Source: Ptychomitrium polyphyllum
Lineage: Eukaryota
NCBI GenBank assembly: GCA_973851085.1
Contig: OZ316775.1
Coordinates: 23,126,001-23,186,400 of the forward strand
DNA: 60,400 bases
Reading direction: 5' to 3'
The position numbers and the translations under genes were made by a program. Below are positions 3,801 through 60,400 of this stretch, one piece after another. The notes under the pieces were generated by a model. That model saw nothing but the letters and a program-made list of their open reading frames with translations. It ran no database searches and was not told the DNA's origin. Numbering within the stretch: the first letter of the stretch is position 1; every line of letters starts with the position of its first letter.

Positions 3801-4037
3801 GATTACAAGAACAACGTAGGGTTACAAAACTACAAAAACAAACCTGGATTGCCCTGCATCGAGCTCTACACCACCAATCGCACTGTAACCCCGCGGCCTC
3901 CCTCGATTCAGCAAGGGCGCTTCCACGAGCTCGATCGCCCCGCCATGTGCTCCCGACGAGGTCGTCACATGCGGCCGGACGCTCCGTAACGCCTCCCGGT
4001 ACTTCCGGAACAACGCAGTCTGGTTTCTCGTCGCCAT
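810..4037 (-). CDS. SYP4: Qa-SNARE syntaxin of the SYP4 (SYP41/42/43, Tlg2/syntaxin-16) family; 8 exons, 324 aa
   Basis: Manually spliced GT-AG exons 4037-3844, 2924-2642, 2484-2395, 2052-1981, 1640-1563, 1341-1276, 1133-1053 and 920-810 join in frame (975 nt). N-peptide MATRNQT, LPPGWVD motif, SNARE helix IVESVNDLAQIMKDLSVLVIDQGTIVDRIDYNI and a C-terminal transmembrane segment. Confidence 0.95.
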
Positions 4038-6994: not shown

Positions 6995-8005
6995 ATGGAT
7001 AACGTGCTTGGAACATTAGAGAATATATTTGCAACTATTGTAGACCTTCAAGAATTGTTAAACACAGTTCAAACGGAACTTGCCTGTTTTAATATCACCA
7101 ACAATTTGGAGCAACACACTCGGCAAGCTGAAGAATCTAATGGTGATATTCAAAGCCTATATCAAGAGGTTGTTTGATTGCGAGAGAATAGTATTAAAAG
7201 GGAGAGCTTACATCAAACCCATGCAGAGCCAAAGATTAGCATGCTAGACAAGTTCCATGAATGAAGATCAAAATTGAGAGGCTTTGTTCAACAAGTAAGG
7301 CTCTTCCTTAGTTTGCATCAATCTCGTTATCCTGATGGCACAACTCAAGTGGGATTTGTGGCCACTCTTTTATCAAACAATGCACTATCGTAGTTTGCAC
7401 CACTAATGGAGAAGCAGTCACCATTATTGAACAACTTAGATGCTTTTATAGAAGCATTAACATCTACTTTTGGAGACACCGACCGAGAGAAGATGGCTGA
7501 AACAAGGATCCAGAGTCTCCAACAAGGACAGCGCTCAGCTACTACATATGCTACAGAGTTTCGACAATTAGCTTGCGACCTTGATTGGATTGATAAAGCC
7601 TTGGTCACACGATTTCAATGGGGCTTAAGAGAGAATGTAAAGGACTTGCTACTCACAATGCTAAGAGTTGAAACATTGGACGAATTCATCACTCAAGCAA
7701 TAGCAAATGACAATAGACTATTTGAGAGGCGCCAAGAACAACGCTTGAAATGGCGACCAGTACGTCAAAACATGGCTACCACTTCTTTAAGAATATTGGA
7801 AAGTCGACATCAAGGATTGAAACCTATACAAATTGATGCTGCCCAGGGCGAACGTTTGGCTCCAGAAGAAAAAGAAAGGCGTCGAAGAGAAAACCTATGT
7901 TTGTATTGTGGCAAGTCTAGACATAAAGTGCACGATTGCCAAATCAAAGGATTTACCTTTAAGGCTCAAAGCACAATGGTGGAGTTGGAAAACAAGGCTG
8001 TCTAG
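6995..8005 (+). pseudogene. gag with CCHC zinc knuckle, interrupted by stops
   Basis: Retrotransposon gag motifs LQQGQRSATTYATEF and CLYCGKSRHKVHDC; in-frame stops between 7177 and 7406. Confidence 0.9.
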
Positions 8006-8119
8006 TTATATTAGAGACTATGCGACTGGACACCACAAGGAAACCACCATCAAATTAAGGTCTCTTACTACCCTCAAGCCCTACCTCTTGTTTTACATTT
8101 TCTATCAAAAGTAAATAGT

Positions 8120-11100
8120 TAGATAGTGAGGCTCTATTAGACACTAGTGCAACGGCATGTTTCATGGACAAGGATTTTGCAACCAAACATCACATGGTGC
8201 TTCTGAATAAAAAATATCCTGCACCTGTTGAAGTTATTGATGGACGATCTCTTGCATCTGGCAATGTTATTAAAGAAACTCAACTCTTGCAGGTCATTTT
8301 AGGAGATCAGACATCTAAGATTGTCTTCAACATCATTCAATGCCAAAAAAATCCTATTGTCTTGGGCCTTCCTTGGTTTGAATTACATAATCCAGACATT
8401 GACTAGCGCTCACGGAGTGTGGTATTAAGGAAAAGACGTCAAGGTACGAGAAATCTTGGACCATCATTTATTAGAGCTAAGGCATTTATGAGAGCGGCAA
8501 AGGATGAATCAATCTATACCATTTATGCCACGCTAATGTCCAGCTCAACAATAGAGACTAATCAAAACATACCTCGTCAATATCAAGATTATAAAGACGT
8601 TTTTGAAAAGATGAATGCGGATATGTTACCAAAGCACCGGCCCTATGATTGTACCATTGAGTTGCAAGAAGGAGTCCAACCACCTTTTGGACCGATTTAT
8701 AATTTATCACAAACTGTATTGACTGCCTTGAGAGAATATATTGATGAAAACCTTGGAAAGGGTTTCATTCAGCACTCTAAATCACCTGTTGGAGCACCCA
8801 TTCTATTTGTAAAGAAGAAAGATGGATCATTACGTATGTGCGTGGACTATCGAGGCCTCAACAAAGTAACAAAAACAAATCGCTATCCATTACCATTAAT
8901 CTCAGGAATCCTACAACAACTTGGCCAAGCAAAGATATTCACCAAAATTGATCTTAGAGGAACCTACAACCTTGTACGCATCAAAGAAGGAGACAAGTGG
9001 AAGACAGCTTTTCAATCTAGGTATGGTCATTTTGAATACAATGTCATGCCTTTTGGCCTTACTAATGCTCCCGCAGTCTTCCAACATATGATGAATGATA
9101 TCTTCCATGAATATCTGGACGATTTTGTAGTCATTTATTTGGATGATATTTTGATATATTCAAAGGATGAACAAGTCCATGAATGTTATGTACAACTAGT
9201 CTTAGAAAAATTACGCCAGCAAGGACCACATGCCAAATTGGAGAAGTGCCTTTTCCATGAATCATTGGTTGAATTTTTAGGCTACATCATTTTTAAAGGA
9301 GGAATCCATATGAATAACAAGAAAATAAGCACTATCATAGAGTGGAGTACGCCAAGATCAATTCGAGATGTTCAGTGTTTCTTGGGATTTGCAAACTTCT
9401 ACAGAATATTCATCAAGAATTATTCCAAGGTTGCGGCACCATTACCACGTCTTACAGGGAAGCAAAAAATCATTTGGGATGAAGAAGCGGGAAAAGCATT
9501 TCAAAGTCTTAAAAAATCATTCACGTCGGCTCCAATTCTTATTCATCCAAATCCATCAAAGCCTTTCTATTTGGAAGCGGATGCCTCAGATTTTGCGCTT
9601 GGCTCAATACTCTCACAATATGATGAAGATGGCAGACTTCACCCTCTTGCCTTTCGTTCAAGGAAGTTCTCAGCGGCAAAGATCAACTATGATATACATG
9701 ATAAAAAACTACTTGCATTTGTGGATGCGTTTGAAGAATGGCGACACTTATTGGAAGGAGCTCAATATACCATTACGATATACAAAGACCACAAGAGCTT
9801 GGAGTATTTCATGAGTGCGCGCGTTTTGAATCGCCGTCAAGCAAGGTGGAGTATGTTGTTTTCCAGATTTGACTTTGTCATTACCTATCGATCTGGTAGC
9901 TTACAAGATAAGCTAGATGCCTTATCTCAAAGATCTTATTTAGCTCTCCAACTTGGGGATGATGTTTTGAATCAACAAACGGCTATTTTATTGAAGCCTG
10001 AGAATCTTCAATTGAAAGCAACGATTATTACAACAACATCCCATCTTGACAAAATTCGGAAGGCTTTGAACAATGACGTCTTTGTTTCAAATATAAAAAA
10101 GTGCCTCAAAGACAATGGAAATCCTTCAAATAGCAATGAGGACTTTGAATTCCAAGAGGGCCCACTTTATTACAAAAGACTTTTGTATCTACCTCCACGC
10201 CCTTTGCAGTTGAAGATCCTTCAAGCACGTCATGATTTTCCAGCAGCACGACATTTTGGATTCAATAAAACAATGAAGTTGATTGCTAGAGACTATTGGT
10301 GGCCACAAATGTGGAAGTACGTGAAGGACTTTATTTGATCATGCGACACTTGTGCAAGAGCCAAGGTACCAAGGCACCAACTTCATGGTCTCCTCCATCC
10401 GCTTCTAGTGCCAAAGGGCCCATGGTTGTCTCTATCAATGGGATTTATCATGGACCTTCCAAACTCCGATTCTAAGGATTCTATTTTGGTAGTGGTGGAT
10501 CAATTTACCAAAATGGCACATTTCATTGCATGCAATAAGACGGTAACGGGAGAAGAAACTGCCAAGTTGTTCCTAAACCACGTCTATCGCATACATGGAC
10601 TACCAGATGATATTGTATCCGATCGGGGACCGTAGTTCATTTCCAACTTTTGGAGGGCTCTATTCCAGCTGTTGCGTGTAAAGATCAATCTTTCTTTAGC
10701 ACACCATCCAGAAACTGATGGCCAAACGGAACTTGTGAATCAAATTTTGGAGCAGTATCTTTGTTGTAGCATAAACTACCAGCAAGACAACTGGATGGAT
10801 CTCTTGCCTTTGGCAGAATTTGCTTACAACAATACGGTGCATTTTTCAACAACTCAAAGTCCATTCTTTGCAAACTATGGCCATCATCCTCAAACACATC
10901 CATTTCAAGTGAAGCATGTTGGATGTCTTGCAGCAAAGGATTTTGCAATTCAACTTGCTAAAATCCATTAAGAAATTACCTTCCAGTTACAACAAGCTCA
11001 AGATCGTTACAAAACTTATGCAGACCGCCATCGGAAGGACCATCGAAAGTTCAAGGTTGGAGATAGCGTATGGCTCCTTTGACGAAATATACAGACAAAA

Positions 11101-44090: not shown

Positions 44091-46547
44091 ACAGTACCCT
44101 ACAAATTCCTTACATTGTTGTAATGCTATTAATAATTTGATTTAAAATGTAGCAAATTTTTGTTATTTTGTAAATTTTAGTTTATTGTATTTAAAAGGGA
44201 ATTTTAGCACAAGAGAAATGAAGGTTGAATGAAAGGGATCATGGTAAAACCATGGTTTTATTTAGCTTGGAGGTGGAATTGCATCTTGTTTTAGTTTAAG
44301 GTGAGAGGGACCTTTTGATTGTAGTGCTTTTTTGCATGCTTTTCTTATTAGCAGTATTAAGTCACTCGCTACCATTCTACTTAATGAATTCAATAGGAAT
44401 CCAGCTCGGATTGATTTAACAGCTCAAACTTATCCAGTCAACTAAATTCTTGACTTAATGTTTGATTTTGTCTTGACAATCTCTTTATTCTTATTTTGTT
44501 TAACTCCAATTCTTTATTTGTTTTTATTTTAGTTCATTTTCTTATTTTGGATTTATAAAAGTTGGCTTTGTTTTTTTTTTGGAATTTGAATCTAAAAATT
44601 TCTTTCAAAAGAAAGAAAAGATTTACAATATTCTTTTTGATGATGTAGGAAGATAAGAAGCTAAAATAGGAGGATAAGAAGCTGATGTGGAAGTTTGACT
44701 TCCATTTTTTATTTTTATTTTATTGGCATCTTCAACTTAGTATATAAGGCCGTCCTTCTTTGGCCAATATCTAATAGCATACTTTTTAGTTTGAGTTGAA
44801 TTTTGTTTAATTTTTTTTCTTTGATTATAAGCTTTTCAAAATGCCATCACATGCTCCATTTGAAACTAATAAATAACCATGGCTCTAATTTGAATAAAAT
44901 TGATTCAATTGCCTTAAGTTTTAAGAGGAGCTGCTTTGAGTGCTTATAAGTTCTTATAGAAATGATTGTTTTTATGAAAAAATTTAAATGGTATCATCTT
45001 AATTACTTCAATACAAATAATGTAAAAATTTGAAAAACAAAAGGCTTATATGATGAGACATATGAGGTATTTGATGAATAATATACAACAGAGATTGAGT
45101 TGTACTTTTTAGGCTATAGGAGTTGAATGGACAAATTTATAAGGCTGATATTTTGGAAAATATTATTAATAAGATAAAAAAAATGAATATAAAAGTTCAT
45201 ATCTAAATTCACAATAAAAAAAGAGTTATGAGGTGTTCAAGAAGAAGGGGTCTACAAGTTACGGCAGTGGTTTCTCAATTATGATCTGAATTCTTCAACT
45301 TGGATATATTTGTACCCTAAATTTGTTGTAACCTTCAAAAGCTTATAAAATATGCTTCAATGACTCTGTGAGCTGTAGAATCAGTTCATTATAGATTTTT
45401 TTTTTAAATCATGATAAAATTTAACATTGTAGAAGAGATTAGGTCTAATTAGGGTAAAAGAAGTTGAATTATAGTTGTTATTAAAAGAAGTATAAGACAA
45501 GTGGGCAGATGGTCATGGTCCATGACACTTAAGGCCAATGCAAGAATGGAATTATAGAAAGAAAGATGAAATATACAACTTGAATATATTTTTTGCAGAT
45601 TTTAGAGCAGCAACTAAATTTAGAATGATAGTCAAAATTTATAACTGCTGCTAATTTTAGATTTATAGCTATATTTAGCAATTTTAGAGTTAAGAAAAAT
45701 TATTGTTACAATTTGATTAGGAAATTCAAGAATTAGAGGAAGGTATTTAAAGAGTAGTTAGAGTAGTTTAAAGGGGGCTTGGAGGAGCAAGATTTAAAGA
45801 ATTGGAAGTACAAAGAATTGAATTAGTAATATAAAAAGAAAAAGAAATTTCTTAGAAGAAAATCTTAGAAGAAGAGTTTTTGAGAGAATGAGAGAATAGC
45901 AAATAAGTTTAATAGAAGTAGAAAAGAAATAAGTAAGAATTAAGGTTGATGTAGTAGTTTTAGGAAGGAATAGGTGGAGTAAGAGTTAGTAAGTATTTAT
46001 AAGAGTGTAGAAGAGGAGAACAGCTCTAATTTAGTTAGAATTTTGTAGTTTTGTTTTCCATTCTTTCCTTGCAAGCTTGGGGAGAAACGGTACCATGCCA
46101 GCTGGAATGCAAGGCCAACCAGGCTGAGATCTCCGAAGGCGGAACCAGTGGAGTAAAGATTGGTTATGTGAAGATCCATCGCAACTTGTGGAGCTGGAGT
46201 GAAATAGAAAGCAGAAAATGATGGAAGAATCAGCAGCCCTACACTAAATCCACACTATACCAGAGGCAGAAATTGCTTCAAAACGCAAGATTCTCAACTG
46301 CGGAACTGGCAAAGCTGCAAGTACAAGCAAAAGTAATATAGTAGAATTCGGCCATGCGGAGGATCTATTGAGACTTGCGGAGTTGGAATAGAGAACAAAA
46401 AACGGCAAAGGATCCAGCAGTAAGAGAAGTTAAAGGTTTGTTGTAATCTAGTTAGCACAACTTAAGAAACAACAGCCCAAAGAAAAACAACTAGGCCTTG
46501 CTGTCATTTGATTATCACAAAAGAGTAGTCACAAAGCTCACTAAAAG

Positions 46548-46635
46548 TTTAGGGTTTAGGGTTTTAGGATTTAGGGTTTAGGGTTTAGGGTTTAGGGTTT
46601 AGGGTTTAGGGTTTAGGGTTTAGGGTTTAGGGTTA
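46548..46635 (+). repeat. Telomeric tract 1, (TTTAGGG) about 12 units
   Basis: Arabidopsis-type repeat with one TTTTAGGA variant; G-rich strand points towards the window end. Confidence 0.98.
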
Positions 46636-49600
46636 CAAGAGCGTCCTAGAGGTTTTAGGTGTGGCTGGATTCTAAGGTTCTGCGCGACATCTGCACACCA
46701 CGGGATTCGCAATGCCACAAGGATTCCAAAAACCCCAAGCTTTTTTGAAAATTTCAGGTTCTGCAAGAATTAGGGTTTAGGGTTTCGGGCGAGGAATTAC
46801 CCTCGTTCTGACCCTAAATCGGCCCGGGTTCACACACATTCCAAGCACAAGGTTCGAAATTGCAAGTCACCTGTGTAAAGCAAGATCAGATTGACAAGAC
46901 CGTCTACAAATTGAACCCAACTGAGGAGAGCAAAATCAGTTTCACAAGACCGTCCACAAATTGAACCCAACTGAGGAGAGCAAAATCAGTTTCACAAGAC
47001 CGTCCACAAATTGAACCCAACTGAGGAGAGCAAAATCAGTTTCACAAGACCACTGCGGCTATGTCTCAGTCACCCCTGCATAGAGCACAGCACTGCTCCA
47101 CCCGAATGCCACCGGCTTACTGCACTGTCTGGGACCAGGGGCCAGTATCATAGAACGGCCCCATTGTCCACATTAAGCATTGGGCCCGGCGAGTATTCAA
47201 GTAGGGGAGAAATGTGGACCAGAACGGAACCGGCCGTCCTCCAGTGGCGTGAAGACCAGGTCCAAGACGACAGAAATAAAGGGTTCACGGACACCAGCGA
47301 AGAAGCCATAGTTTCTTGTGAAACGGGGACAGAATGCGAGCAATATCCAGGTTGGCCAGTAGTATCTACAGCCCTCATCCCAGGTTCCATCATAGTGCGC
47401 ATGGGCAACCAATTTAGCAAGAATTGAGTTGGAAGAACAAATCTAGAATTTAAACGATCCCAATGGGAAAAGAGCGGTGAGATGGTGAACCTGGGCATTT
47501 TTTCCCGTGAAAGCCGGCCCGTCTTCGTCGCGAAAAGGTCCCAGCTCACGCTCTTCGCGTAATCCCGTCATCGACTGCGTCAATTACGGAATATTTTAGC
47601 GGAGCAGACTCACAGTTGTATCCGTCCTCAGTACTTCGTGCACGCCACCGAGCAGGTCGGAGACACAGGAACCGGGAGAGAATGAGTTCAAAATAAAAAA
47701 TCGTCCAATAACCTGGTCCCCGAGCGAGTGACGCAACTGTCCGCACTTCTGGAATTGGATCAACGAGAACCTAGTTACAACAGAATTACAAAACCAATGA
47801 GCGTCCTGTCGAATGAGCGACCATGAGAACTGGAGAAACGACTCCGTATACAACCATACTAACCCCAACATTGGTGTCGGGTGTCACGTACCTTCTTCCC
47901 TTCGAGACGACGCAGACCAGGATTCGGAAGCATGTCCTCATGCTGCCAAGAGATGAGGGGCGAGGGGGGGTGGGCAAGAAACCGTAGAGGGGACGGAGGA
48001 CGGGACATCGCCAGACCGTAAACCCGGTGCCGCTGCTGGACAGCGGACTGGAATCTCGAGAGCGCAACCCGCAGAAACGTGATACCCCTGGCCTTGTGCA
48101 CACACAGCCCCGGCGGTGCAGAAACGAAGCAGGAGTAAGGTAGTACCACCACCGGTTGCGTCGAAGTCGAGCGCCCCAACCAGGCAGGGCCGGACACAGA
48201 GGTTCACGCAAGCGGGCAGGCAGGCGAAGCGGATAGGCAGGCGAAGGAGGCGAGGGGGCAAGTGCGGAGGGCGTGCGGCGCTCCCAACACCGCACGCTGG
48301 GAGGGGCTGTCACACCCACTCCGTGACGCAACTGCACCACAGTTTTCGGCCGAGCTCCAGTCCACGGGCACTTTTAGGCGGAGCTCCAGTTCACCGGCGG
48401 TGTAGTGGCAGTTCAAGGGCTTTTCCCCTCTTACGCTTGCCACTACGAGTGGTTTTCCTCTTTCTCTTCGCATTGCGAGCGCCCTTCCTCGCACCTTTCA
48501 TACTGCCGGTGGTCGCCCTTTCACTCTCCTACGCTCTGCTGTAAAAATCGGGAGGACCCTGAACCTGGTACGGTCGGAAGGGGTAGGGTCGGAATTGGGT
48601 CTGCAAGGACGGACCGGCTTCCGATACCGGGAGTACTGGTGGGGCCGAAATTGGTCCGGGCTCGCCCCGTACTGGCCGTGACCGTCTCGCACCTACCGGT
48701 TCGTCCAATACCGGAATTGGACCGGGCTGATTCCCCGTAAGAACGGGTGGGACCGCCTAAACCCAATGAATTGGGATTCCTGCGGCCTCGTACCCGTCTC
48801 TTCTCCGATCCCGGTCATCAAAGTGCAACGGGGCATTGCACCGTGGATTAGAGGCTCTCCACGCCAGTTAGGATCTCCGCATGTTGGAGCGTAATCATGG
48901 CGAGCTCTCGGATGGGGACATCCGCCGGCCCGGTGACCGATCCGGCAGGGCTGTGGCATCCCATCCGCGGCGCAAGTCCACCGCAGTTCCAGGCCGAGCT
49001 CCAGTTCACCGGCAGCCTCGGGCGGAGCTTCCGTTGACCGTCGGTGCAGTGGCAGTTCCATGGCATCTTTCTCCCGCTTTTCGCATCGCAAGTGACTGTG
49101 CTTCTGCTCCCCTACGCTCTTCTGTAAGGGTAGGCACCACCGTGTAAGGCACTTGTATATTGTCCTGGGCGGCTCATATCTGCGATGTATTTTCAATTTA
49201 TTTTGCATATATATATTTTCGGTTCATTTTCTCCCAATTCTGTGATGCTGGATCCCTCCGTTACGGCAATCTCCGTGCACATCTGATGGTATCGCATCGC
49301 TCCGTTGGTATCACTCCGTTGGTGTCGGTCGAAGTGTGACGGCTTTACGGTTCTGACTGTGATTTCCATGCTCCGATTTAGGGGGACCGGGGTCGTGCAA
49401 GCGCTCCAGGTGTGGGGGATTTTCGCGTTCTCACCGTGACCCCGCACGTTCCCTGCGTAGTTCTGGTTCACGTTCTGTGCACGTTCAATATATCATCTGC
49501 GAAGGACGGTACCTCGTGGGTCGTACCATCCTCATATGTAGGTCATCCGCATATGTTCCGACAAACAAAAGAATAAGGACGTGGAGCGCTTCGACGTATT

Positions 49601-50086
49601 TCGAATGCATGCCGACAGTATACGCCACATTATCGGAGGAGGTGTGGGACCTGCGATGGGGACCTCCTGATTCCGTGCGGATCGTGACCCACGTTCTTCG
49701 GCGTTCGGAGATCAGGATTCCAGGATGGACGCTGTTGCGAATGTCAGCGGGCGTCCCGGGCGTCAGCCCGGGTTGGGGACCGGATCCACCACCGCCGACC
49801 CACTCCATACAGATATCGACTCCGCGTGCTTCATGATGGATCTCCGTGATCTACACGGCTTGGTCGGAGAGATCGTGCGTCCAGCCAACCGCAGAATCCG
49901 CGTGAAGGATTCCGAATTCTACAGGGAGTGGTTGCACGTCATATCCGACCCGATCGTCGTGAAGGTGGATGCAGGGCTCTCGGATGCGGAGAGGGAGGAC
50001 CAGAAGCGTTCCATCTGCCAGGAATTGCGAAGGGGCCATGGGCTGGCGCTGACTCTCAGCAACCACGACATGGTCCTCGCCAGGAG
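46636..50086. mobile_element. Telomere-embedded GC-rich element, copy 1 (distally truncated)
   Basis: Near-identical to 50228-53878, flanked by telomeric tracts, and ends inside the 517-aa ORF. Confidence 0.85.
46894..47051. repeat. 50-bp tandem repeat, 3 units, in copy 1
   Basis: ACAAGACCGTCCACAAATTGAACCCAACTGAGGAGAGCAAAATCAGTTTC. Confidence 0.95.
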
Positions 50087-50105
50087 TTTAGGGTTTAGGG
50101 TTTAG
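49725..50105 (+). pseudogene. Truncated copy of the 517-aa ORF fused to telomeric repeats
   Basis: First 121 aa match 53517..; the tail LGFRV* is read from TTTAGGG. Confidence 0.9.
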
Positions 50106-50227
50106 GGTTTAGGGTTTTAGGGTTTTAGGGTTTTAGGGTTTTAGGGTTTTAGGGTTTAGGGTTTAGGGTTTAGGGTTTAGGGTTTAGGGTTTAGGGTTTA
50201 GGGTTTAGGGTTTAGGGTTTAGGGTTA
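50087..50227 (+). repeat. Telomeric tract 2, 19 units including five consecutive TTTTAGGG variants
   Basis: 4x TTTAGGG, 5x TTTTAGGG, 10x TTTAGGG, then TTA. Confidence 0.98.
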
Positions 50228-50485
50228 CAAGAGCGTCCTAGAGGTTTTAGGTATGGCTGGATTCTAAGGTTCTGCGCGACATCTGCACACCACGGGATTC
50301 GCAATGCCACAAGGATTCCAAAAACCCCAAGCTTTTTTGAAAATTTCAGGTTCTGCAAGAATTAGGGTTTAGGGTTTCGGGCGATGAATTACCCTCGTTC
50401 TGACCCTAAATCAGCCCGGGTTCACACACATTCCAAGCACAAGGTTCGAAAGTGCAACTCAACTGTGTAAAGCAAGATCAGATTG

Positions 50486-50843
50486 ACAAGACCGTCTACA
50501 AATTGAACCCAACTGAGGAGAGCAAAATCAGTTTCACAAGACCGTCCACAAATTGAACCCAACTGAGGAGAGCAAAATCAGTTTCACAAGACCGTCCACA
50601 AATTGAACCCAACTGAGGAGAGCAAAATCAGTTTCACAAGACCGTCCACAAATTGAACCCAACTGAGGAGAGCAAAATCAGTTTCACAAGACCGTCCACA
50701 AATTGAACCCAACTGAGGAGAGCAAAATCAGTTTCACAAGACCGTCCACAAATTGAACCCAACTGAGGAGAGCAAAATCAGTTTCACAAGACCGTCCACA
50801 AATTGAACCCAACTGAGGAGAGCAAAATCAGTTTCACAAGACC
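50486..50843. repeat. 50-bp tandem repeat, 7 units, in copy 2
   Basis: Same unit as 46894; the copy offset changes from 3592 to 3792 across the array. Confidence 0.95.
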
Positions 50844-53516
50844 ACTGCGGCTATGTCTCAGTCACCCCTGCATAGAGCACAGCACTGCTCCACCCGAATG
50901 CCACCGGCTTACTGCACTGTCTGGGACCAGGGGCCAGTATCATAGAACGGCCCCATTGTCCACATTAAGCATTGGGCCCGGCGAGTATTCAAGTAGGGGA
51001 GAAATGTGGACCAGAACGGAACCGGCCGTCCTCCAGTGGCGTGAAGACCAGGTCCAAGACGACAGAAATAAAGGGTTCACGGACACCAGCGAAGAAGCCA
51101 TAGTTTCTTGTGAAACGGGGACAGAATGCGAGCAATATCCAGGTTGGCCAGTAGTATCTACAGCCCTCATCCCAGGTTCCATCATAGTGCGCATGGGCAA
51201 CCAATTTAGCAAGAATTGAGTTGGAAGAACAAATCTAGAATTTAAACGATCCCAATGGGAAAAGAGCGGTGAGATGGTGAACCTGGGCATTTTTTCCCGT
51301 GAAAGCCGGCCCGTCTTCGTCGCGAAAAGGTTCCAGCTCACGCTCTTCGCGTAATCCCGTCATCGACTGCGTCAATTACGGAATATTTTAGCGGAGCAGA
51401 CTCACAGTTGTATCCGTCCTCAGTACTTCGTGCACGCCACCGAGCAGGTCGGAGACACAGGAACCGGGAGAGAATGAGTTCAAAATAAAAAATCGTCCAA
51501 TAACCTGGTCCCCGAGCGAGTGACGCAACTGTCCGCACTTCTGGAATTGGATCAACGAGAACCTAGTTACAACAGAATTACAAAACCAATGAGCGTCCTG
51601 TCGAATGAGCGACCATGAGAACTGGAGAAACGACTCCGTATACAACCATACTAACCCCAACATTGGTGTCGGGTGTCACGTACCTTCTTCCCTTCGAGAC
51701 GACGCAGACCAGGATTCGGAAGCATGTCCTCATGCTGCCAAGAGATGAGGGGCGAGGGGGGGTGGGCAAGAAACCGTAGAGGGGACGGAGGACGGGACAT
51801 CGCCAGACCGTAAACCCGGTGCCGCTGCTGGACAGCGGACTGGAATCTCGAGAGCGCAACCCGCAGAAACGTGATACCCCTGGCCTTGTGCACACACAGC
51901 CCCGGCGGTGCAGAAACGAAGCAGGAGTAAGGTAGTACCACCACCGGTTGCGTCGAAGTCGAGCGCCCCAACCAGGCAGGGCCGGACACAGAGGTTCACG
52001 CAAGCGGGCAGGCAGGCGAAGCGGATAGGCAGGCGAAGGAGGCGAGGGGGCAAGTGCGGAGGGCGTGCGGCGCTCCCAACACCGCACGCTGGGAGGGGCT
52101 GTCACACCCACTCCGTGACGCAACTGCACCACAGTTTTCGGCCGAGCTCCAGTCCACGGGCACTTTTAGGCGGAGCTCCAGTTCACCGGCGGTGTAGTGG
52201 CAGTTCAAGGGCTTTTCCCCTCTTACGCTTGCCACTACGAGTGGTTTTCCTCTTTCTCTTCGCATTGCGAGCGCCCTTCCTCGCACCTTTCATACTGCCG
52301 GTGGTCGCCCTTTCACTCTCCTACGCTCTGCTGTAAAAATCGGGAGGACCCTGAACCTGGTACGGTCGGAAGGGGTAGGGTCGGAATTGGGTCTGCAAGG
52401 ACGGACCGGCTTCCGATACCGGGAGTACTGGTGGGGCCGAAATTGGTCCGGGCTCGCCCCGTACTGGCCGTGACCGTCTCGCACCTACCGGTTCGTCCAA
52501 TACCGGAATTGGACCGGGCTGATTCCCCGTAAGAACGGGTGGGACCGCCTAAACCCAATGAATTGGGATTCCTGCGGCCTCGTACCCGTCTCTTCTCCGA
52601 TCCCGGTCATCAAAGTGCAACGGGGCATTGCACCGTGGATTAGAGGCTCTCCACGCCAGTTAGGATCTCCGCATGTTGGAGCGTAATCATGGCGAGCTCT
52701 CGGATGGGGACATCCGCCGGCCCGGTGACCGATCCGGCAGGGCTGTGGCATCCCATCCGCGGCGCAAGTCCACCGCAGTTCCAGGCCGAGCTCCAGTTCA
52801 CCGGCAGCCTCGGGCGGAGCTTCCGTTGACCGTCGGTGCAGTGGCAGTTCCATGGCATCTTTCTCCCGCTTTTCGCATCGCAAGTGACTGTGCTTCTGCT
52901 CCCCTACGCTCTTCTGTAAGGGTAGGCACCACCGTGTAAGGCACTTGTATATTGTCCTGGGCGGCTCATATCTGCGATGTATTTTCAATTTATTTTGCAT
53001 ATATATATTTTCGGTTCATTTTCTCCCAATTCTGTGATGCTGGATCCCTCCGTTACGGCAATCTCCGTGCACATCTGATGGTATCGCATCGCTCCGTTGG
53101 TATCACTCCGTTGGTGTCGGTCGAAGTGTGACGGCTTTACGGTTCTGACTGTGATTTCCATGCTCCGATTTAGGGGGACCGGGGTCGTGCAAGCGCTCCA
53201 GGTGTGGGGGATTTTCGCGTTCTCACCGTGACCCCGCACGTTCCCTGCGTAGTTCTGGTTCACGTTCTGTGCACGTTCAATATATCATCTGCGAAGGACG
53301 GTACCTCGTGGGTCGTACCATCCTCATATGTAGGTCATCCGCATATGTTCCGACAAACAAAAGAATAAGGACGTGGAGCGCTTCGACGTATTTCGAATGC
53401 ATGCCGACAGTATACGCCACATTATCGGAGGAGGTGTGGGACCTGCGATGGGGACCTCCTGATTCCGTGCGGATCGTGACCCACGTTCTTCGGCGTTCGG
53501 AGATCAGGATTCCAGG

Positions 53517-55070
53517 ATGGACGCTGTTGCGAATGTCAGCGGGCGTCCCGGGCGTCAGCCCGGGTTGGGGACCGGATCCACCACCGCCGACCCACTCCAT
53601 ACAGATATCGACTCCGCGTGCTTCATGATGGATCTCCGTGATCTACACGGCCTGGTCGGAGAGATCGTGCGTCCAGCCAACCGCAGAATCCGCGTGAAGG
53701 ATTCCGAATTCTACAGGGAGTGGTTGCACGTCATATCCGACCCGATCGTCGTGAAGGTGGATGCAGGGCTCTCGGATGCGGAGAGGGAGGACCAGAAGCG
53801 TTCCATCTGCCAGGAGTTGCGAAGGGGCCATGGGCTGGCGCTGACTCTCAGCAACCACGACATGGTCCTCGCCAGGAGCCAGGTGAACGTCCCCCTCCGA
53901 GCGATGGTGGAAGCGCTCCGGGCGTGCGGCCATGTGGAATGCCGGGTGGGGTTCTATGGCATGAAGTGGGCCTACCAGAAAGCCCAGCCTAGAATCGACC
54001 GCTTCGTGCAGTACCACACGGCCCTCCGCGGGAGAGTAGCTGTGGGGAGGAGGAACCAATTCGACATCGGGACGCTGCTGCCTGCAGCGACGATAGATGT
54101 CCTCTGCTTCGGCGAGGGTCAGTTCGGTCCCGTTCGAAGATTCAGGCAGGGCAAAATACACGAGATGTTCGACATTCCCAACCACGGCTCCCTGGAGTTC
54201 TACCTATCGGGCCACGAAGGGATCGGGAAGGTCAAAATCTACCACGAGCCGTGCCATGATGTCCTGTCCGCCATACCGAGGCACAGCCTGGACGACATGC
54301 CCAAGACGATCCGCACCATGCGCATCCGGGCGGAGCAGATGGAGAAACTATTACGAGCATGGGAAGGGTACGACGGTGCGACGTTGAGGGAACGCCTGCT
54401 GGGCACCAGGATCGAAGTGTCCATCGCACGTGCCCACACAGTCGCGGAGGCCCACCGTATGTGTTCGGACCTGGGGCTGCTGCAATTGCAGGGCATCGAG
54501 AGATTGCTGGGGGGGCCGTTCCGCACCCAAAGCATTTCCGCCCACGAAGTCCTGCACAACCTCAGATCGAAGGTCCGGATACTGCAAGGCCTGGTACTGG
54601 GCGGGAACGATTGCACGCCGAGCATCGCGATGCGGTCCGCCCTCACGAGGGCTCGCCAGGCAGTCGGATGGAGCGGCAAACACATGCGGCGTCACCTCAA
54701 GGACGCTCGGAATTGGGGGGGGGCTGTGGTGGATCAGCAGGTACGGAAAGAGCGTCCGTTGTTCCACTACGACGGTTGGGAGCTGGATGATGCGCACAAC
54801 CGGCCCGTGATCCAGGACTTCCTGGACAACGCGTCCTGGCAGAATCACAGTCGGGCGAGGGAGAGGGACCCCCATCCCACCATGCTGCAGAAGGTGAGAG
54901 GAGGCGGGTACTGGAAAATGGAAGGGGTGTACGTGGATCGGGTCACCGGCGCCCGCCACTTCATCAACAAATACGGCAGGAATTGGAGGAGACATGTGAA
55001 GGCCAAGCCAGAGGGTTTAGGGTCGGACAATGAAACATTCCGTTGTCCAGTGGACTCATTCGAGACGTAG
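53517..55070 (+). CDS. Intronless 517-aa protein of unknown family (possible nuclease or replication initiator)
   Basis: Long intact ORF with globular composition. The two substitutions noticed against copy 1 are both synonymous. Motifs DIDS, FYGMK, FDIG, KIYH and GTRIEV. Confidence 0.85.
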   Translation: MDAVANVSGRPGRQPGLGTGSTTADPLHTDIDSACFMMDLRDLHGLVGEIVRPANRRIRVKDSEFYREWLHVISDPIVVKVDAGLSDAEREDQKRSICQELRRGHGLALTLSNHDMVLARSQVNVPLRAMVEALRACGHVECRVGFYGMKWAYQKAQPRIDRFVQYHTALRGRVAVGRRNQFDIGTLLPAATIDVLCFGEGQFGPVRRFRQGKIHEMFDIPNHGSLEFYLSGHEGIGKVKIYHEPCHDVLSAIPRHSLDDMPKTIRTMRIRAEQMEKLLRAWEGYDGATLRERLLGTRIEVSIARAHTVAEAHRMCSDLGLLQLQGIERLLGGPFRTQSISAHEVLHNLRSKVRILQGLVLGGNDCTPSIAMRSALTRARQAVGWSGKHMRRHLKDARNWGGAVVDQQVRKERPLFHYDGWELDDAHNRPVIQDFLDNASWQNHSRARERDPHPTMLQKVRGGGYWKMEGVYVDRVTGARHFINKYGRNWRRHVKAKPEGLGSDNETFRCPVDSFET

Positions 55071-56432
55071 CGAAACCGGGCCGCATCTGGTCGTGCAGTG
55101 ATCACGTGCATCGGATACTGATGTCCAAATTGCCCCGGGATACTCGGCGTCTGTCGCCGGTGTCCACCTCCGACCACCGTCCGCGTGGTCCCTCAACATG
55201 CGGATCTCCAAAGTTCCGTCGTTGCAAGATGCCGACGTCTCGTCCAGTAGCTAACCCAGCGTAGGGGGGTGCGGGACCCGGAGATGCCGGTTGCTCCAAA
55301 AAGAACCCAGCGCTCGTCGGCTGGCATTACAGTCCGCCGCAGGTTCAGGCAGAGCGACAAGTTCACCTGCGTCTTTTACGCACAGCTTCAGTTCACCGGC
55401 AGTTCTAGGCAGAGCTTCAGTTCACAGCCGGTGCAGCGGCAGTGTCGACGGCCCTCTGTTCCCAACAATGATTCACCAGATGAACTCGGCTCTCTTCCAA
55501 GAGGGTCGAATGTCATTCCCCAGTCAGCCCAAGGAGGCCATAGAGGAGACAGCTGCTGACCGTCGAACGATGATATGTATCGAGGTCTTTCATGCAGTGC
55601 ATTGATGTCCCCAATAAGCTTCGGAGGTGCATCCGGGATTGGCCCCGGTGGAACCGGTATCTCGGTACCGGGTCCGAATTGGGTCGCTTGGACGGACCGG
55701 CTATCCAGTACTGGGGTACGGGTTCCGGAGCCGGTACTCGGTCATGCTCGCCCTGACCCGCAACTCCGAAATCGCAAGATACTGGGAGGACTCTGAGGAT
55801 TGGGAGGAAGTTGGAATGGAACGTAGGTAACCCTGTTTTGATTTCTAGTTTTCCATCCGTCTTCGGGCTCAGGGAATCAGGGGTTTAGGGTACTGGGCTT
55901 CGGGTTTAGGGTACTGGGTTTCTAGGGTTTAGGGTTTCGGAATGGGTCGCCAGGACGGACCGGCCATCCAGTATAGTACCGGGGTTTAGGGGTTGAGGAC
56001 CCGATACTGGTCGGCGCCCTCCTTGAGCCGGTCGTCGTATCCTCGCACTTATATGTCAAATGTGTGTTTGAATGTCCACCTTCCCGTCCCATTTTGTGTA
56101 TCAAGTACGTTCATGGAATATATATCAGATTTTGGATTCGCTTTCGAATTTTTCTTCAGGTGATGGTCCGATGTTCACACTGTCGGAGGTTGAGGGTGGT
56201 TTGGCTCCTTCTCATCCGGTTGTGGCGATTGAAGAATGCAGTTGAGTCAGACCTACATAATCCGCCGGTCTCATGTTCTGTGGATTATATGAACGCCACA
56301 GCTATGAGGCCTTCCGTGCAGTGACGAGAAACTTATACTCAACCATTCACTGTTTCGATTCATAACGCCAAAAACTCCGAGGCTATACAAAAACATCGGA
56401 ATACCTGAACGTGGGCTCGTGGGTTGACGGCA

Positions 56433-56645
56433 TAGTCCGCCGCAGGATTGGGCAGAGTGACCAATTCACCTTCAATTTGTAGGCACAGCTTCACTTCACC
56501 TGCAATTTTTAGGCACAGCTTCACTTCACCTGCAATTTTTAGGCACAGCTTCACTTCACCTGCAAATTTTAGGCACAGCTTCAGTTCACCGGTAGTTTCT
56601 AGGCAGAGCCTCAGTTCACAGCCGGTGCAGCGGCAGTTTGGACGG
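56433..56645. repeat. 30-bp tandem repeat (AGGCACAGCTTCACTTCACCTGCAATTTTT-type) of the intergenic module
   Basis: About 6 units here; diverged versions at 52133-52205, 52770-52850 and 55331-55455. Confidence 0.85.
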
Positions 56646-57297
56646 CTTTTTCTTCTCTTACCGTTCATATCGCAGAGTGATTTTCCTTTTACTTTCCTAC
56701 GCTCCTCCCTGAATAGAGTCACCACACTTGTAGGCGCTATTATATACCATGTGCTCAGTTTATATTGTGGATATGTTTTCAATTCATTTTTGGTGCGGCA
56801 CGTGCTGGTGGGTCCTCTGCCACTGCCGTCCGGGCACATAGTTGATGGTAATGTACCCCTCCATCCGCACGACCCATGGTTTTGATGGAAGTCTCGTGGC
56901 TTTCGCATTCATGGGGATTTCCGTGGTCCGATCGTAGTGTCCAGACCCGATCCTAGAGGTCTCCGACTTGTGCGAGTTTCCGCAGGTCCAGGGGATTTCG
57001 CGGTTCCGATCGTGACTGCAAGTTTTGAGTGTGTTCCCAATCGATGTCCTCTATGTATTCAGTATATTCCCTGTTCACCTCCCACGGACGGCATCTTCTC
57101 GGTCGTACCCATTCCTCCTGTAAGGTATCTGCTCATTCCGAAATAAACCCCCCCCCCCCCCATTACTGCGGCCTGTTTTGATTTTATTTTGATCCGGTCC
57201 GGCAGATCTTGGTGTGAACCACGCCGATCTCTTGACCCGTGACTTTGCAAGCATTCCCTGATCTCCGGGATCCGCTGCAAGGAGGTCGCAATTGCGG

Positions 57298-58480
57298 ATG
57301 GCGCCCATCGAGTGCAGGCAGGATTCCTGGCTCTGGTCGCGAGAGTTGTGGGTTTGGGAATTCATGTTAAAGTGCACGGATGGAGTTCTAGTGCTGGAGG
57401 AGTTCCGGAAGGAAGTGCCCTTTCCAGAAGGAGTTCCCCGACTGACTCAGATGTCCATAATCAGAGATGTCACCGGTCTACTGTCGACTCCTCCGCTCGA
57501 AAGGCACAGCATCAAGCAAGTCAAGCGACTCCTGCGAACCCTCACATATACGATGCTCGTCGGCAAGGATGAGGTGAAGCTGAAGGATACGGTGGTCGGG
57601 GGGCGCCTGAGACATGCCCTACAACCGGAGGACTTCCTCGATCCCATCCGGGAGCTGAAAAACGAGCTCAGAGGGTGGATTCCAGGCGCACAGGACAATC
57701 CCAGACAATACGAGGCCATCCGGGACAAGCTCTCCATACTGGCACAGAGAGCTTGGGCTTCGTTCGGATCCTTGGCGCTCGACGCACCCATACAAACCGC
57801 CGTTGTTGGGAGGCGCCCCCCGGAAGTCCAGCCGCCAGGAGCAGCTCCAGGAGATGGGCCTCCCCTTGCAGGAGCCAGCGGCATCTGCGAAGCTACCAGG
57901 TTGAATGACCTGGAGAACCATTTCAACAGAAGATGCTCCCAACTGGAGCAGCTCATCGCGGAGCAAGCCGACCAGCATCAGCAAGATATCCGAGCTCTAG
58001 GGGCTGCGGGGTTCGCAGTCGGCTCGAGGCAGACCTCCACCGACCAGGAACTGTCGGATCCAGGATCTCCCCCTCCGTTAGTGGGCCCACACCGTGCCGT
58101 GTTCGGCCCCCCCGTGTGCCTGCCTGAAGATGGGCCGAGCCGGGAGGCACACCAGCAGAACGGGAAGCGACTTCTCGAGGAGGACGACCTGCAGCCCAAA
58201 AGCGGCCGAGCGAAGCCTCGAACCCACCAGCGATGAATCCGCCGACCATTTCGTGGCGCCCCCAGCATCCGGTTCGACACAGGGAAGGCAGAGAAGGAAG
58301 TGGACGGACCGGGAGGTAGAGGTACTGAGGGCCGGCGTCAGAAAATACGGTATTGGAAAATGGAAGCAGATCTTGACCAGGTTTCAAGACGAACTACCCG
58401 GCCGCACCAATGTGGATATCAAGGATAAGTACATGGCTCTCATAGGCGTCAAGAAGAAGTACATTAAGAAGGAGGCTTAG
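57298..58480 (+). CDS. Protein with a helical N-terminal region, coiled coil and C-terminal telobox-type Myb domain, split across two frames
   Basis: ORF 57298-58236 overlaps ORF 58094-58480 in the +1 frame. The latter contains RRKWTDREVEVLRAGVRKYGIGKWKQILTRFQDELPGRTNVDIKDKY, matching TRF/TRB-type Myb domains. Likely 5'UTR intron at 57125-57205. Confidence 0.8.
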
Positions 58481-59254
58481 ATTGTAGAGAGTGTGTCGCC
58501 GGAGGGTTCACACCCGCTGTCGTGCTCCCCGTCGGAGACTCGTATGTGGCCACCGGCCCCATTTTGGAATAAGGAAGACGGCGTCCATTACTCGCCGTCT
58601 CTGTATGGGGCCCGAGCGACCAGGTTCGGGCACTCCCACGCGGAACACGACCGGTCTCGAAAGTCGGACGGGATCGGTATCGGTGCAGCCGGAATCGGTC
58701 GCCGCGGAACCCATGTCCCGGTACGGGGTCCGAATTGGGTAGCCAGGACGGAACAGCCACCCGGTACCGGGCTACGGTTCACGGGTTCAGGGTCTACGGC
58801 TCCGGGTTTAGGGTCCGGTATTTCGGTCCAGCGTTCGAATTGGGTCGCCTAGACGGACCAGTCATCCAGTACCGCGGTACGGGAGCCGGGTTCGGGGTAT
58901 CGGGTTCATGGTATCGGGTTCAGGGTATTGGGTTCGAAGTTTCGGTACTGGGTTCGAATCGGGTCGCCCGGACTGGCCAGCCATCCAGTACAGTGCCGGG
59001 GTAGGGGTTCGGGGCCCGATACTGGCCATTTTGTATGTGAAATACGTTCATGAAGTATACATGAGATTTTGGATTCGCTTCTAAATTTTCCTTCGGGTGA
59101 TGATCTGATGTCCGTACCGTCGACCAGGTTTTAGGGTGGTTCGGCTTCTTTGCACCCAACTGTGACGACATCAGAATGTTGTTGAATTAGACTCACATAA
59201 TCCGTCGGCCTCACTGGCTACTGTCGACATTACGTTCCAATGTATACTGTTATC

Positions 59255-59553
59255 TTTATTGTGTATACTCATGCTTCCGGAGAAGGTGTAAGTACGATAC
59301 TGTCACAATCGATGATGAAGGTCATGATCGACTGATGTATTATGCAAGTCGGCAATTGACATCAACCGAAGGGAGTGACACAGTTATGTAGAGAGAAGAA
59401 TCGGCAATTATTTTTGCCTCGGGGAAACCCCTTCATCATATATTCGGAAACAAGACCAGTATCAAGATAAATCACCAAGCACTAGGCTATCGTATCAATA
59501 AATGCAATATTGTAAGCCGAACTGCTCGGTGGATAATACTAGTGCATGTTTTC
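59255..59553 (+). pseudogene. Degenerate Ty3/gypsy-type RNase H fragment
   Basis: Manual translation: FIVYTHASGEGVSTILSQ / (frameshift) DDEGHDRLMYYASRQLTSTEGSDTVM*REESAIIFASGKPLHHIFGNKTSIKINHQALGYRINKCNIVSRTARWIIL. Confidence 0.8.
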
Positions 59554-59680
59554 AGGAGGAGTTATCTCTCTGACTGTGCTTAGAGTGCTGACATTACCTT
59601 CCATCGTCGTACTTGTTGCAACATAAGAAATCAGTGTTCAAGTGGACCAGGGGTTGTAGTAATAGAGTTCATCACTGTCA

Positions 59681-60055
59681 GTGAGGAAAACAAGGGGAAA
59701 CGAGATTCATTTCATCATCACTGGGCACTGGGATTCGGAACGCCGTGTGCCAAGGCGCCCACATTGTGCTCCAGGGTGGTTTGGGGTCATACGACAATGC
59801 AGTGAGAAAGTCAACATGTGTGACGGCACATGCGGCCATGCAGTGGGGGGGGGGGGGAGTCACTTGTGTGACCGGGTTCTCCCACGGTGTAGGAGCTCCG
59901 AACGGGAGTTCGGAATGGTATGGCTTTCGTTCACCGGGCTCAACATGCCCGAGTTGTGGACGGATGAAGTTAAGGCCCGTCATACTTCATCCTCTCGTGA
60001 CGGCCTCATGCGGTATCGGATGAAGACGCGCGAGGCCTTTTCCGAAAGAGCATGA
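59681..60055 (+). other. Possible small ORF or exon of a third element gene
   Basis: Open frame in GC-rich sequence spanning a G homopolymer; no recognisable motif. Confidence 0.25.
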
Positions 60056-60367
60056 AGAATGCAAGTTGATGGTCCATTTCGGGGACCGGGTCTGAGCGAC
60101 CACGAAAACATCAGAACTGTCGAGTGTAAGAACTGTCGAGTGACCAGGTTTAACTGGGTGCCGAAATTCGCCCACAACAGGCACGAAATTCCGAAATTCC
60201 GGGCGCATGCACGTAGGCGCATGCTGACGGACGTGACGGACATGTCGGGTAGAGGGGAAAGCCAGGCCGGATGACATGGCACTGGAGGCGCGGAGAACTG
60301 AGCACAGGACTGAAGATACCGCCATGTGTCAAACCCGGATTGGAACGCCGCAGACGACACCCGCATC

Positions 60368-60400
60368 TAGGATTTAGGGTTTTAGGGTTTAGGGTTAGGG
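60368..60400 (+). repeat. Telomeric tract 3 running to the window end (probable chromosome terminus)
   Basis: TAGGA TTTAGGG TTTTAGGG TTTAGGG TTAGGG. Confidence 0.9.

Follow-up and report, generated by a model that had tools for sequence, protein, structure and literature searches.

In the cited literature, the eukaryotic transposons that work with a tyrosine nickase, the Helitrons and the Replitrons, use HUH enzymes (PMC13085455, PMC10288648), and Rep_trans enzymes seem confined to bacteria, with a sister family in archaea (2026, PMC13107129). Rep_trans enzymes carry their tyrosine on a β-sheet together with D, D and E ligands (PMC5714925, PMC4797284), remain attached to the nicked 5' end and release a 3'-OH (PMC5714925). 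Here we describe a window of 60,400 nucleotides (the whole stretch of DNA that was analysed) from the moss Ptychomitrium polyphyllum (assembly GCA_973851085.1, contig OZ316775.1, positions 23,126,001 to 23,186,400 of the forward strand), the right-hand part of which holds a multicopy element stacked between telomere repeats. The first open reading frame (ORF) of this element, ORF1 (53517..55070; features lie on the plus strand unless stated otherwise), encodes a protein of 517 amino acids (aa), by prediction a Rep_trans-like tyrosine nickase with a TBP-type sheet, and a second, ORF2 (57298..58480), encodes a telobox-type Myb domain. We consider it somewhat more probable than not that this DNA element targets telomeres and owes its movement to a Rep_trans-like tyrosine nickase.

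Several described systems resemble the element in part. The Y' elements of yeast encode a helicase and are spread by host recombination. Like the moss element, they form tandem subtelomeric units with short telomere tracts between them (PMC4222662); the moss element differs in that no helicase match was found in ORF1, in its 13-member alignment or in the other element ORFs scanned. The telomeric Helitrons of Paramecium, for which many satellites and non-contiguous duplications are described, share with it telomere repeats on both sides, end stacking, satellites, internal duplications and an ORF in either orientation (PMC13085455), but their transposase ORFs measure 9-10 kb, whereas ORF1 is 517 aa long, with no conserved HUH motif, no helicase match and a predicted TBP-type sheet. 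Replitrons are likewise small single-ORF tyrosine-transposase elements, present in tens of copies in mosses, but they have HUH/HUQ and GYxxK motifs along with short direct repeats at their ends, and the word "telomere" has no occurrence in the main text that describes them (PMC10288648). The Athena/Terminon Penelope-like retroelements likewise stand in head-to-tail arrays at telomeres, have a fixed end and a truncated one, and carry accessory ORFs (PMC6431247); they differ in that they encode a reverse transcriptase (RT) and carry hammerhead motifs, neither of which was detected here, in the element ORFs scanned and in Rfam scans, respectively.

Architecture of the element and its telomere junction

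Host DNA is separated from the first element copy by an interstitial TTTAGGG array of ~12 units (46547..46634). The copy that follows is truncated (46635..50086), comprising the head, an upstream module (module 1, described below) and the first third of ORF1; it breaks off inside ORF1, is capped by telomere repeats and is 99.6% identical to 50228-53878, from which it differs by 9 substitutions and by having four fewer 50-bp units in a tandem repeat that reaches 7.8 copies in the full-length element (50456..50843) and 3.5 in the truncated one. A second interstitial array, of ~19 units (50087..50226), lies between both copies, and the full-length element (50228..60367, ~10.1 kb), with TTTAGGG arrays on both flanks, runs up to the telomere repeats that close the window (60368..60400); since these are the window's last bases, the chromosome end probably lies here. 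Both copies are arranged head-to-tail and both start at TTTAGGG-TTACA, a fixed left junction that is seen as TAGGGTTACA at 50220..50229, with a second instance at 46628 and further ones in related loci. Neither this junction nor the fold of the 517-aa protein had been noticed in the first-pass annotation of the window. A further TAGGGTTACA at 3817 has no repeat array before it and was put down to chance. The element also stands apart in composition, with 55% GC and an observed/expected CpG ratio of 0.93, compared with 34% and 0.52 for the host DNA of the window.

Contig depth points to a multicopy element. In run X1, summed contig depth is ~1,750-2,400 across most of the element's right half and 7,300 at its left end, with rare diverged contigs at a depth near 50; if the latter are single-copy, these values suggest that full copies number in the tens and that left ends outnumber right ends, a rough estimate given that depth is not copy number. 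In runs X5-X8, matches to the element consist of scattered short pieces only.

The first homolog search returned 12 homologs at 39-60% identity, the four named ones coming from Physcomitrium patens and Ceratodon purpureus; P. patens has several near-identical ORF1 homologs, and several of the Ceratodon homologs have locus numbers from the start of chromosome numbering (e.g. KC19_8G000100, M758_3G000300). A tree of 25 rows places the window protein in a starred group of six with a Physcomitrium protein and two Ceratodon proteins, and a profile-based search retrieved 527 cluster representatives at E <=0.001, mostly fragments and without taxonomy. Among 27 metagenome loci that were compared, several near-identical to one another so that counts are not independent, telomere arrays occur in 11 and the terminus motif in 10, against no arrays in the 46.5 kb of host DNA in the window; of 29 array ends examined, 14 (12 in the loci, two in the window) are followed by TTACA. 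Telomere-like repeats are the only non-coding DNA common to these loci and the window element. One locus, L012, holds a complete unit that measures 3.35 kb from terminus to terminus and carries ORF1 alone, broken by stops, and different upstream satellites, and neither the duplicated modules discussed below nor, by tblastn, a match to ORF2 was found in any of the 27. Another, L015:1-8838, contains seven terminus motifs in 8.8 kb, mostly followed by short truncated arms and several placed after telomere repeats, and reads as incomplete copies stacked on one another. At L033 (2935-3346 and 10001-11190), a contig of 149 kb combines a distant relative of ORF1 (26% identity), host-type genes close by and, 7 kb from the relative, a telomere-like satellite in degenerate form. 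A pattern-based search, by which distant relatives can be missed, revealed no ORF1 relatives in viral or prokaryotic contigs.

Outside the genes and modules, the plus strand of the left arm (50850-52095) is purine-rich, with an AT skew of +0.24, and its minus strand contains frames of 139 and 195 aa without a Pfam match; the arm may be transcribed on the minus strand, starting from a divergent promoter. Within the host DNA of the window, 7394-10338 carries frames for a Ty3/Gypsy-type gag and RT-RNase H-integrase.

ORF1 as a predicted Rep_trans-like nickase

The best fold match of ORF1 is to the Rep_trans initiators (PF02486, with RepSTK1, 4CIJ, RepDE, 4CWC, and the MOB_T relaxases), grouped here with Phage_CRI/inovirus gpII and the archaeal Rep-Arvir (PMC13107129). 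AlphaFold2 models, built with 18 sequences, have predicted local distance difference test (pLDDT) scores of 82 for the full protein and 84 for the core. When the core model was compared with 48,161 solved chains, RepSTK1 was the best match (Z 7.1, 185 aligned residues, root-mean-square deviation 4.2) and the sole chain at Z >=5, followed by RepDE at Z 4.8 and then by three TBPs at Z 4.2-4.4; the full model matched RepSTK1 at Z 7.0. These matches fit an extended TBP-like β-sheet catalytic domain in the predicted model, at Z <8. With Foldseek, the model matched RepDE in the PDB (probability 0.77, E 0.028) and, amongst viral structures, inovirus Rep models mixed with TBP-like viral transcription factors (E 0.001-0.003). 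HUH proteins were not listed among the top structural-match rows, and ORF1 itself has no conserved HUH or HUQ motif with YxxK, its sole His column at 90% conservation being H247, with no conserved H-x-H/Q pair.

The candidate active site consists of D32, D183, Y242, R298 and E300. In an alignment of 183 rows, with counts taken over the rows that span each column, Y242 is the most conserved tyrosine (83 of 84), and D32 (67/70), D183 (72/82), R298 (75/80) and E300 (78/81) are similarly near-invariant. All five lie on predicted strands and follow the Rep_trans motif order N', I, III, IV (PMC5714925), so that the likeness, in D, D, E plus Tyr and an RxE, is one of order and conservation. If the structural alignment is ungapped at its start, D32 would fall on D9 of RepSTK1 and D46 of RepDE, both of them metal ligands (PMC4797284). 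Between three related copies, omega is 0.16-0.26 (simple count). An Atlas search gave RNA-dependent RNA polymerase (0.91) alongside Phage_CRI and Rep_trans clusters (0.90-0.91) as weak leads with recognition below threshold, and a homodimer prediction for residues 26-495 scored 0.00 (alignment not used, fold uncertain). One ORF1 homolog, P0008, has a weak N-terminal match to an OTU-like protease (E 0.008).

Several results weigh against the reading of ORF1 as a Rep_trans-like nickase and of the element as its vehicle. Searches of ORF1 against Pfam, PHROGs and NCBIfam gave nothing relevant, nor did Pfam for any of 13 family members; the ORF1 profile found nothing below E 0.3 among PDB sequences; and hhalign of 160 family rows against seven Rep_trans proteins reached 14.0, inside the shuffled controls. 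The Z of 7.1 falls below 8, in the tool's zone for a possibly common arrangement, and the Foldseek E-values are 0.028 (PDB) and 0.001-0.003 (viral), with models of TBP-like viral factors scoring alike. Canonical RxD and YxKxxE are unmatched, ORF1 having N-Q-F-D and K-I-Y-H/Q-E-x-x-H in their stead; the spacing from Tyr to Glu is 58 residues in ORF1 against 23 in RepDE; and ORF1, without a profile link to PF02486 or PF05144, is encoded in a eukaryotic nuclear element. At the level of the loci, whose lack of independence also counts here, a telomere array was not found in 16 of the 27, and in two (L009 and L011) the ORF is inverted relative to the terminus, with joints that differ. These inverted segments (L009:281-2301 and L011:435-2307) retain long intact frames of 580 and 549 codons; inverted copies are also typical of reverse-transcribed elements, in the form of twin-priming inversions. 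No terminal hairpin stands out at either end of the element (z -1.1 to +1.8), whereas the nick site of the pT181 family has been modelled in a hairpin (PMC4797284). As RxD and YxK are unmatched, ORF1 is best called Rep_trans-like on the basis of its model, a protein that may work like Rep_trans enzymes, rather than being filed as a member of the family. The archaeal Rep-Arvir was recognised on similar grounds and subsequently backed by mutagenesis (PMC13107129).

Duplicated upstream modules and the telobox-Myb gene

The first-pass annotation had proposed that each element gene is preceded by a homologous spacer or promoter module of 1.2-1.8 kb, and that unrelated ORFs had been slotted into a duplicated expression cassette, giving co-regulated modular growth. 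The underlying observation is confirmed, with corrections. Every motif listed for 52133-53335 and 55331-57126 is found in both modules and in the order described (positions for module 1 and module 2, respectively): GAATTGGGTC at 52384 and 55676, GGACGGACCGGC at 52399 and 55690, CCTACGCT at 52903 and 56696 with an extra copy at 52320, CACCAC at 52927 and 56720, TTTTCAATTYATTTT at 52982 and 56776, GATTTCC..TCCGAT at 53153 and 56916, GGGGATTT..CGCG at 53207 and 56991, and GGTCGTACC at 53311 and 57101. The two modules are collinear: local alignment of the gene-proximal halves (52700-53520 with 56380-57300) scores 817, where 100 dinucleotide shuffles reach 272 at most, and that of the distal halves 485 against 285. 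Continuous homology, however, extends over only ~600 bp next to each gene (52740-53340 with 56415-57126; 72% identity over 514 ungapped columns, 32 gaps), the distal parts being a repeat mosaic. The two ORFs are indeed unrelated (hhalign probability 0.18%).

The mosaic was resolved by comparing 22 hand-drawn blocks all-against-all. With these author-set boundaries, counterparts in the other module exist for 79% of module 1 and for 64% of module 2, and four block types are distinguished: A (29-30-bp repeats) occurs four times, B (the GAATTGGGT block) six times, C twice and D, the gene-proximal block, exactly twice, with one copy before each ORF. Module 1 consists of a distal part (52096..52480) with A1, whose 29-bp repeats run up to CCTACGCT, and B1, and of a gene-proximal part, A2 and D1 (52740..53340); module 2 of A3, filler, B2, filler, B3 and C1 (55312..56414), followed by A4, with 5.2 copies of a 30-bp repeat, and D2 (56415..57126). 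From their position, the two A+D units are likely to serve as promoter and 5' leader of ORF1 and ORF2, respectively. Downstream of the Myb gene there is a third, partial module of three B blocks and one C block (58661..59213), which is followed by no recognised gene and no Pfam-matching ORF. A blocks are more alike within modules (A3/A4 94%, A1/A2 82%) than between them (75-78%), which suggests that, once the modules had split, these blocks were homogenised or duplicated separately. Degenerate telomere-like 21-bp repeats in block B3 (55881-55940) might be bound by the Myb protein that the element itself encodes. In public contigs with a depth like that of the element's right half, paralogs of B and C occur in another order, the pieces matching window positions 58719-58768, 59046-59214, 56328-56415 and 55470-55738, and one contig has CCCTAAA repeats beside a B block; such contigs appear to derive from a sister element or from a further segment outside the window.

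Functional selection on the shared motifs was not borne out, albeit in a two-copy test with little power: 8 identical runs of >=7 bases were observed against 9.0 +/- 2.3 across 182 neutral simulations with the same identity and number of gaps, and 5 against 6.1 +/- 1.9 in 119 simulations of D alone. The motifs appear to be the residue of a decaying duplicate, with which a promoter function is still compatible. The splice donors suggested before each gene are likewise candidates: GT is present at 57125 and at 53334, and in module 2 a putative 5' untranslated region intron (57120..57205) could run from GT at 57120 or 57125 through a T-rich stretch to a CAG ending at 57205, whereas module 1 (GT at 53330 or 53334) offers only weak acceptors, at 53507 and 53515. 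Both leaders contain several upstream ATGs.

ORF2 combines an N-terminal part without detected relatives (no homolog, no Atlas match, and Sec10_N below threshold only) with a C-terminal telobox-type Myb domain (PF00249, E 7e-9), for which the best PDB matches, at E 1e-7 to 1e-5, are Terfa, TRF1 and telomere-binding proteins of plants, telomere-repeat binders making up 19 of the 20 best solved-structure rows. The telobox Myb proteins of the TRFL/TRF type similarly have a single C-terminal Myb domain, but the ORF2 frame stops ~13 residues past the Myb match and the Myb-extension segment is absent; Arabidopsis TRFLs require this extension to bind telomeric DNA in vitro (PMC10167121). In the window the frame is split at 58198, where contigs from all four of four runs have one base fewer, so that other copies probably encode a single protein of ~393 aa. 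A programmed frameshift was ruled out, the extra base being absent from those contigs.

Proposed mechanism, rival explanations and significance

Under the preferred reading, ORF1 would nick the G-rich strand of a donor copy at the (TTTAGGG)n-TTACA junction, somewhere within GGGTTACA, and stay on the 5' end via Y242, whilst the displaced strand would be joined to a telomeric 3'-OH and the second strand made by host enzymes. The hold of Rep_trans enzymes on the 5' end fits the fixed 5' end of the element on the G-rich strand; the telomere repeats before that end stand in one phase, and the telomere-capped far end is variable, both in keeping with this model. The far end would either be a defined end near 60367 or result from an early stop capped by telomerase, and the outcome would be head-to-tail stacks with telomere spacers. 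The ancestral unit probably contained ORF1 only; given a complete relative that has ORF1 alone and other satellites, the Myb gene and the duplicated upstream DNA are likely to be later additions, an order of events that rests on one complete relative and an unrooted comparison. In this lineage, ~600 bp of upstream A+D would have been duplicated, a telobox-Myb gene would have come to sit behind the copy, and the A, B and C spacer repeats would later have been reshuffled and homogenised among many copies. The Myb protein may, speculatively, help to tether the element to telomeres. The broader proposition, that mosses carry an undescribed class of eukaryotic transposon, comprising telomere-specific rolling-circle elements with a Rep_trans-type (TBP-fold, non-HUH) tyrosine transposase and a 5' end joined to the telomeric G-strand at TTTAGGG-TTACA, stacked on chromosome ends and with a telobox-Myb gene gained here behind a duplicated promoter, seems to us evenly balanced between true and false.

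Two other routes could yield the same geometry, the first of them in part. The element might be a passive subtelomeric repeat akin to Y', propagated by host recombination or break-induced replication via its telomere spacers, with ORF1 either a DNA-binding protein of TBP fold or an enzyme dispensable for movement. The type I survivors described for yeast Y' show this pattern of tandem copies with short telomere tracts in between (PMC4222662), the fold matches that rank next for ORF1 are TBP and viral TBP-like proteins, and no sequence link between ORF1 and Rep_trans was detected; yet recombination alone does not readily explain a single TTACA junction across lineages with otherwise unrelated flanks, or why D, D, Y, R and E are near-invariant and follow the catalytic order, and we regard this explanation as unlikely. 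Still more doubtful is an Athena/Terminon-like unit, in which an RT supplied in trans would copy minus-strand RNA, the telomeric overhang serving as primer, and in which ORF1 and ORF2 would be cargo. Such an origin would suit a fixed left end, a variable right end, depth falling from left to right and inverted copies, and Terminons are described with head-to-tail arrays, 5'-truncation by telomere repeats, reverse-complement telomere-repeat ends and possible Rep ORFs (PMC6431247). Against it, no RT match was obtained in the element ORFs or related-locus frames scanned (51 of 82 listed frames in one scan), no Rfam match appeared in 46000-60400 at E <=1 or in six loci at E <=0.1 (divergent ribozymes being missable in this way), and the left junction has no poly(A).

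The history of the modules is a separate question, and duplication of a complete 1.2-1.8-kb cassette into which unrelated ORFs were slotted, to be co-regulated through conserved motifs, would fit either mechanism. The retained motif order and significant collinearity speak for it, as do the presence of D exactly once per ORF, the unrelatedness of the two ORFs and the relative with ORF1 only. Against the copying of one such cassette as a whole stand the mosaic of blocks beyond ~600 bp, A repeats that are closer within modules than between them, B and C blocks that also occur gene-less here and differently ordered in other contigs, and motif islands that do not exceed neutral simulation. We therefore hold the cassette model in its full form to be rather improbable and consider it supported in part, in that a gene was probably gained behind duplicated upstream DNA. 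An assembly artefact, whereby the modules or the tandem copy would stem from mis-joined reads, deserves almost no credence. The base at 58198 that is lacking in contigs of all four runs does imply at least one error or private change, but the modules are ~28% different with many indels, 9 substitutions and a different repeat number set the two element copies apart, and public contigs span long parts of the element with 0-2 differences (e.g. 51389-52988 and 54978-56509).

The element is a candidate for a new kind of telomere-specific eukaryotic transposon. A literature search of titles and abstract openings found no such element and no eukaryotic Rep_trans, although a prior entry is possible, Repbase, Dfam and subscription journals lying outside its scope; the telomere passages of PMC11871058, PMC10856949 and bioRxiv 10.1101/2023.05.19.541548 leave the element unmentioned. 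In blots, P. patens shows a sharp 0.5-kb interstitial telomere band and Sphagnum fallax a strong 2.1-kb end-linked band (PMC10856949), and elements of this type may produce such unexplained bands in mosses.

A duplicated module is by itself ordinary and of modest interest; its value lies in recording how the element gained a second gene, and the element around the modules matters more than the duplication. If the proposed reading is true, ORF1 would be the first eukaryotic Rep_trans enzyme, the element would be a DNA-based analogue of HeT-A/TART, and a new chemistry would enter the classification of eukaryotic transposons. Land plants would gain a telomere-specialised element, and one that would be directly testable in Physcomitrium patens.

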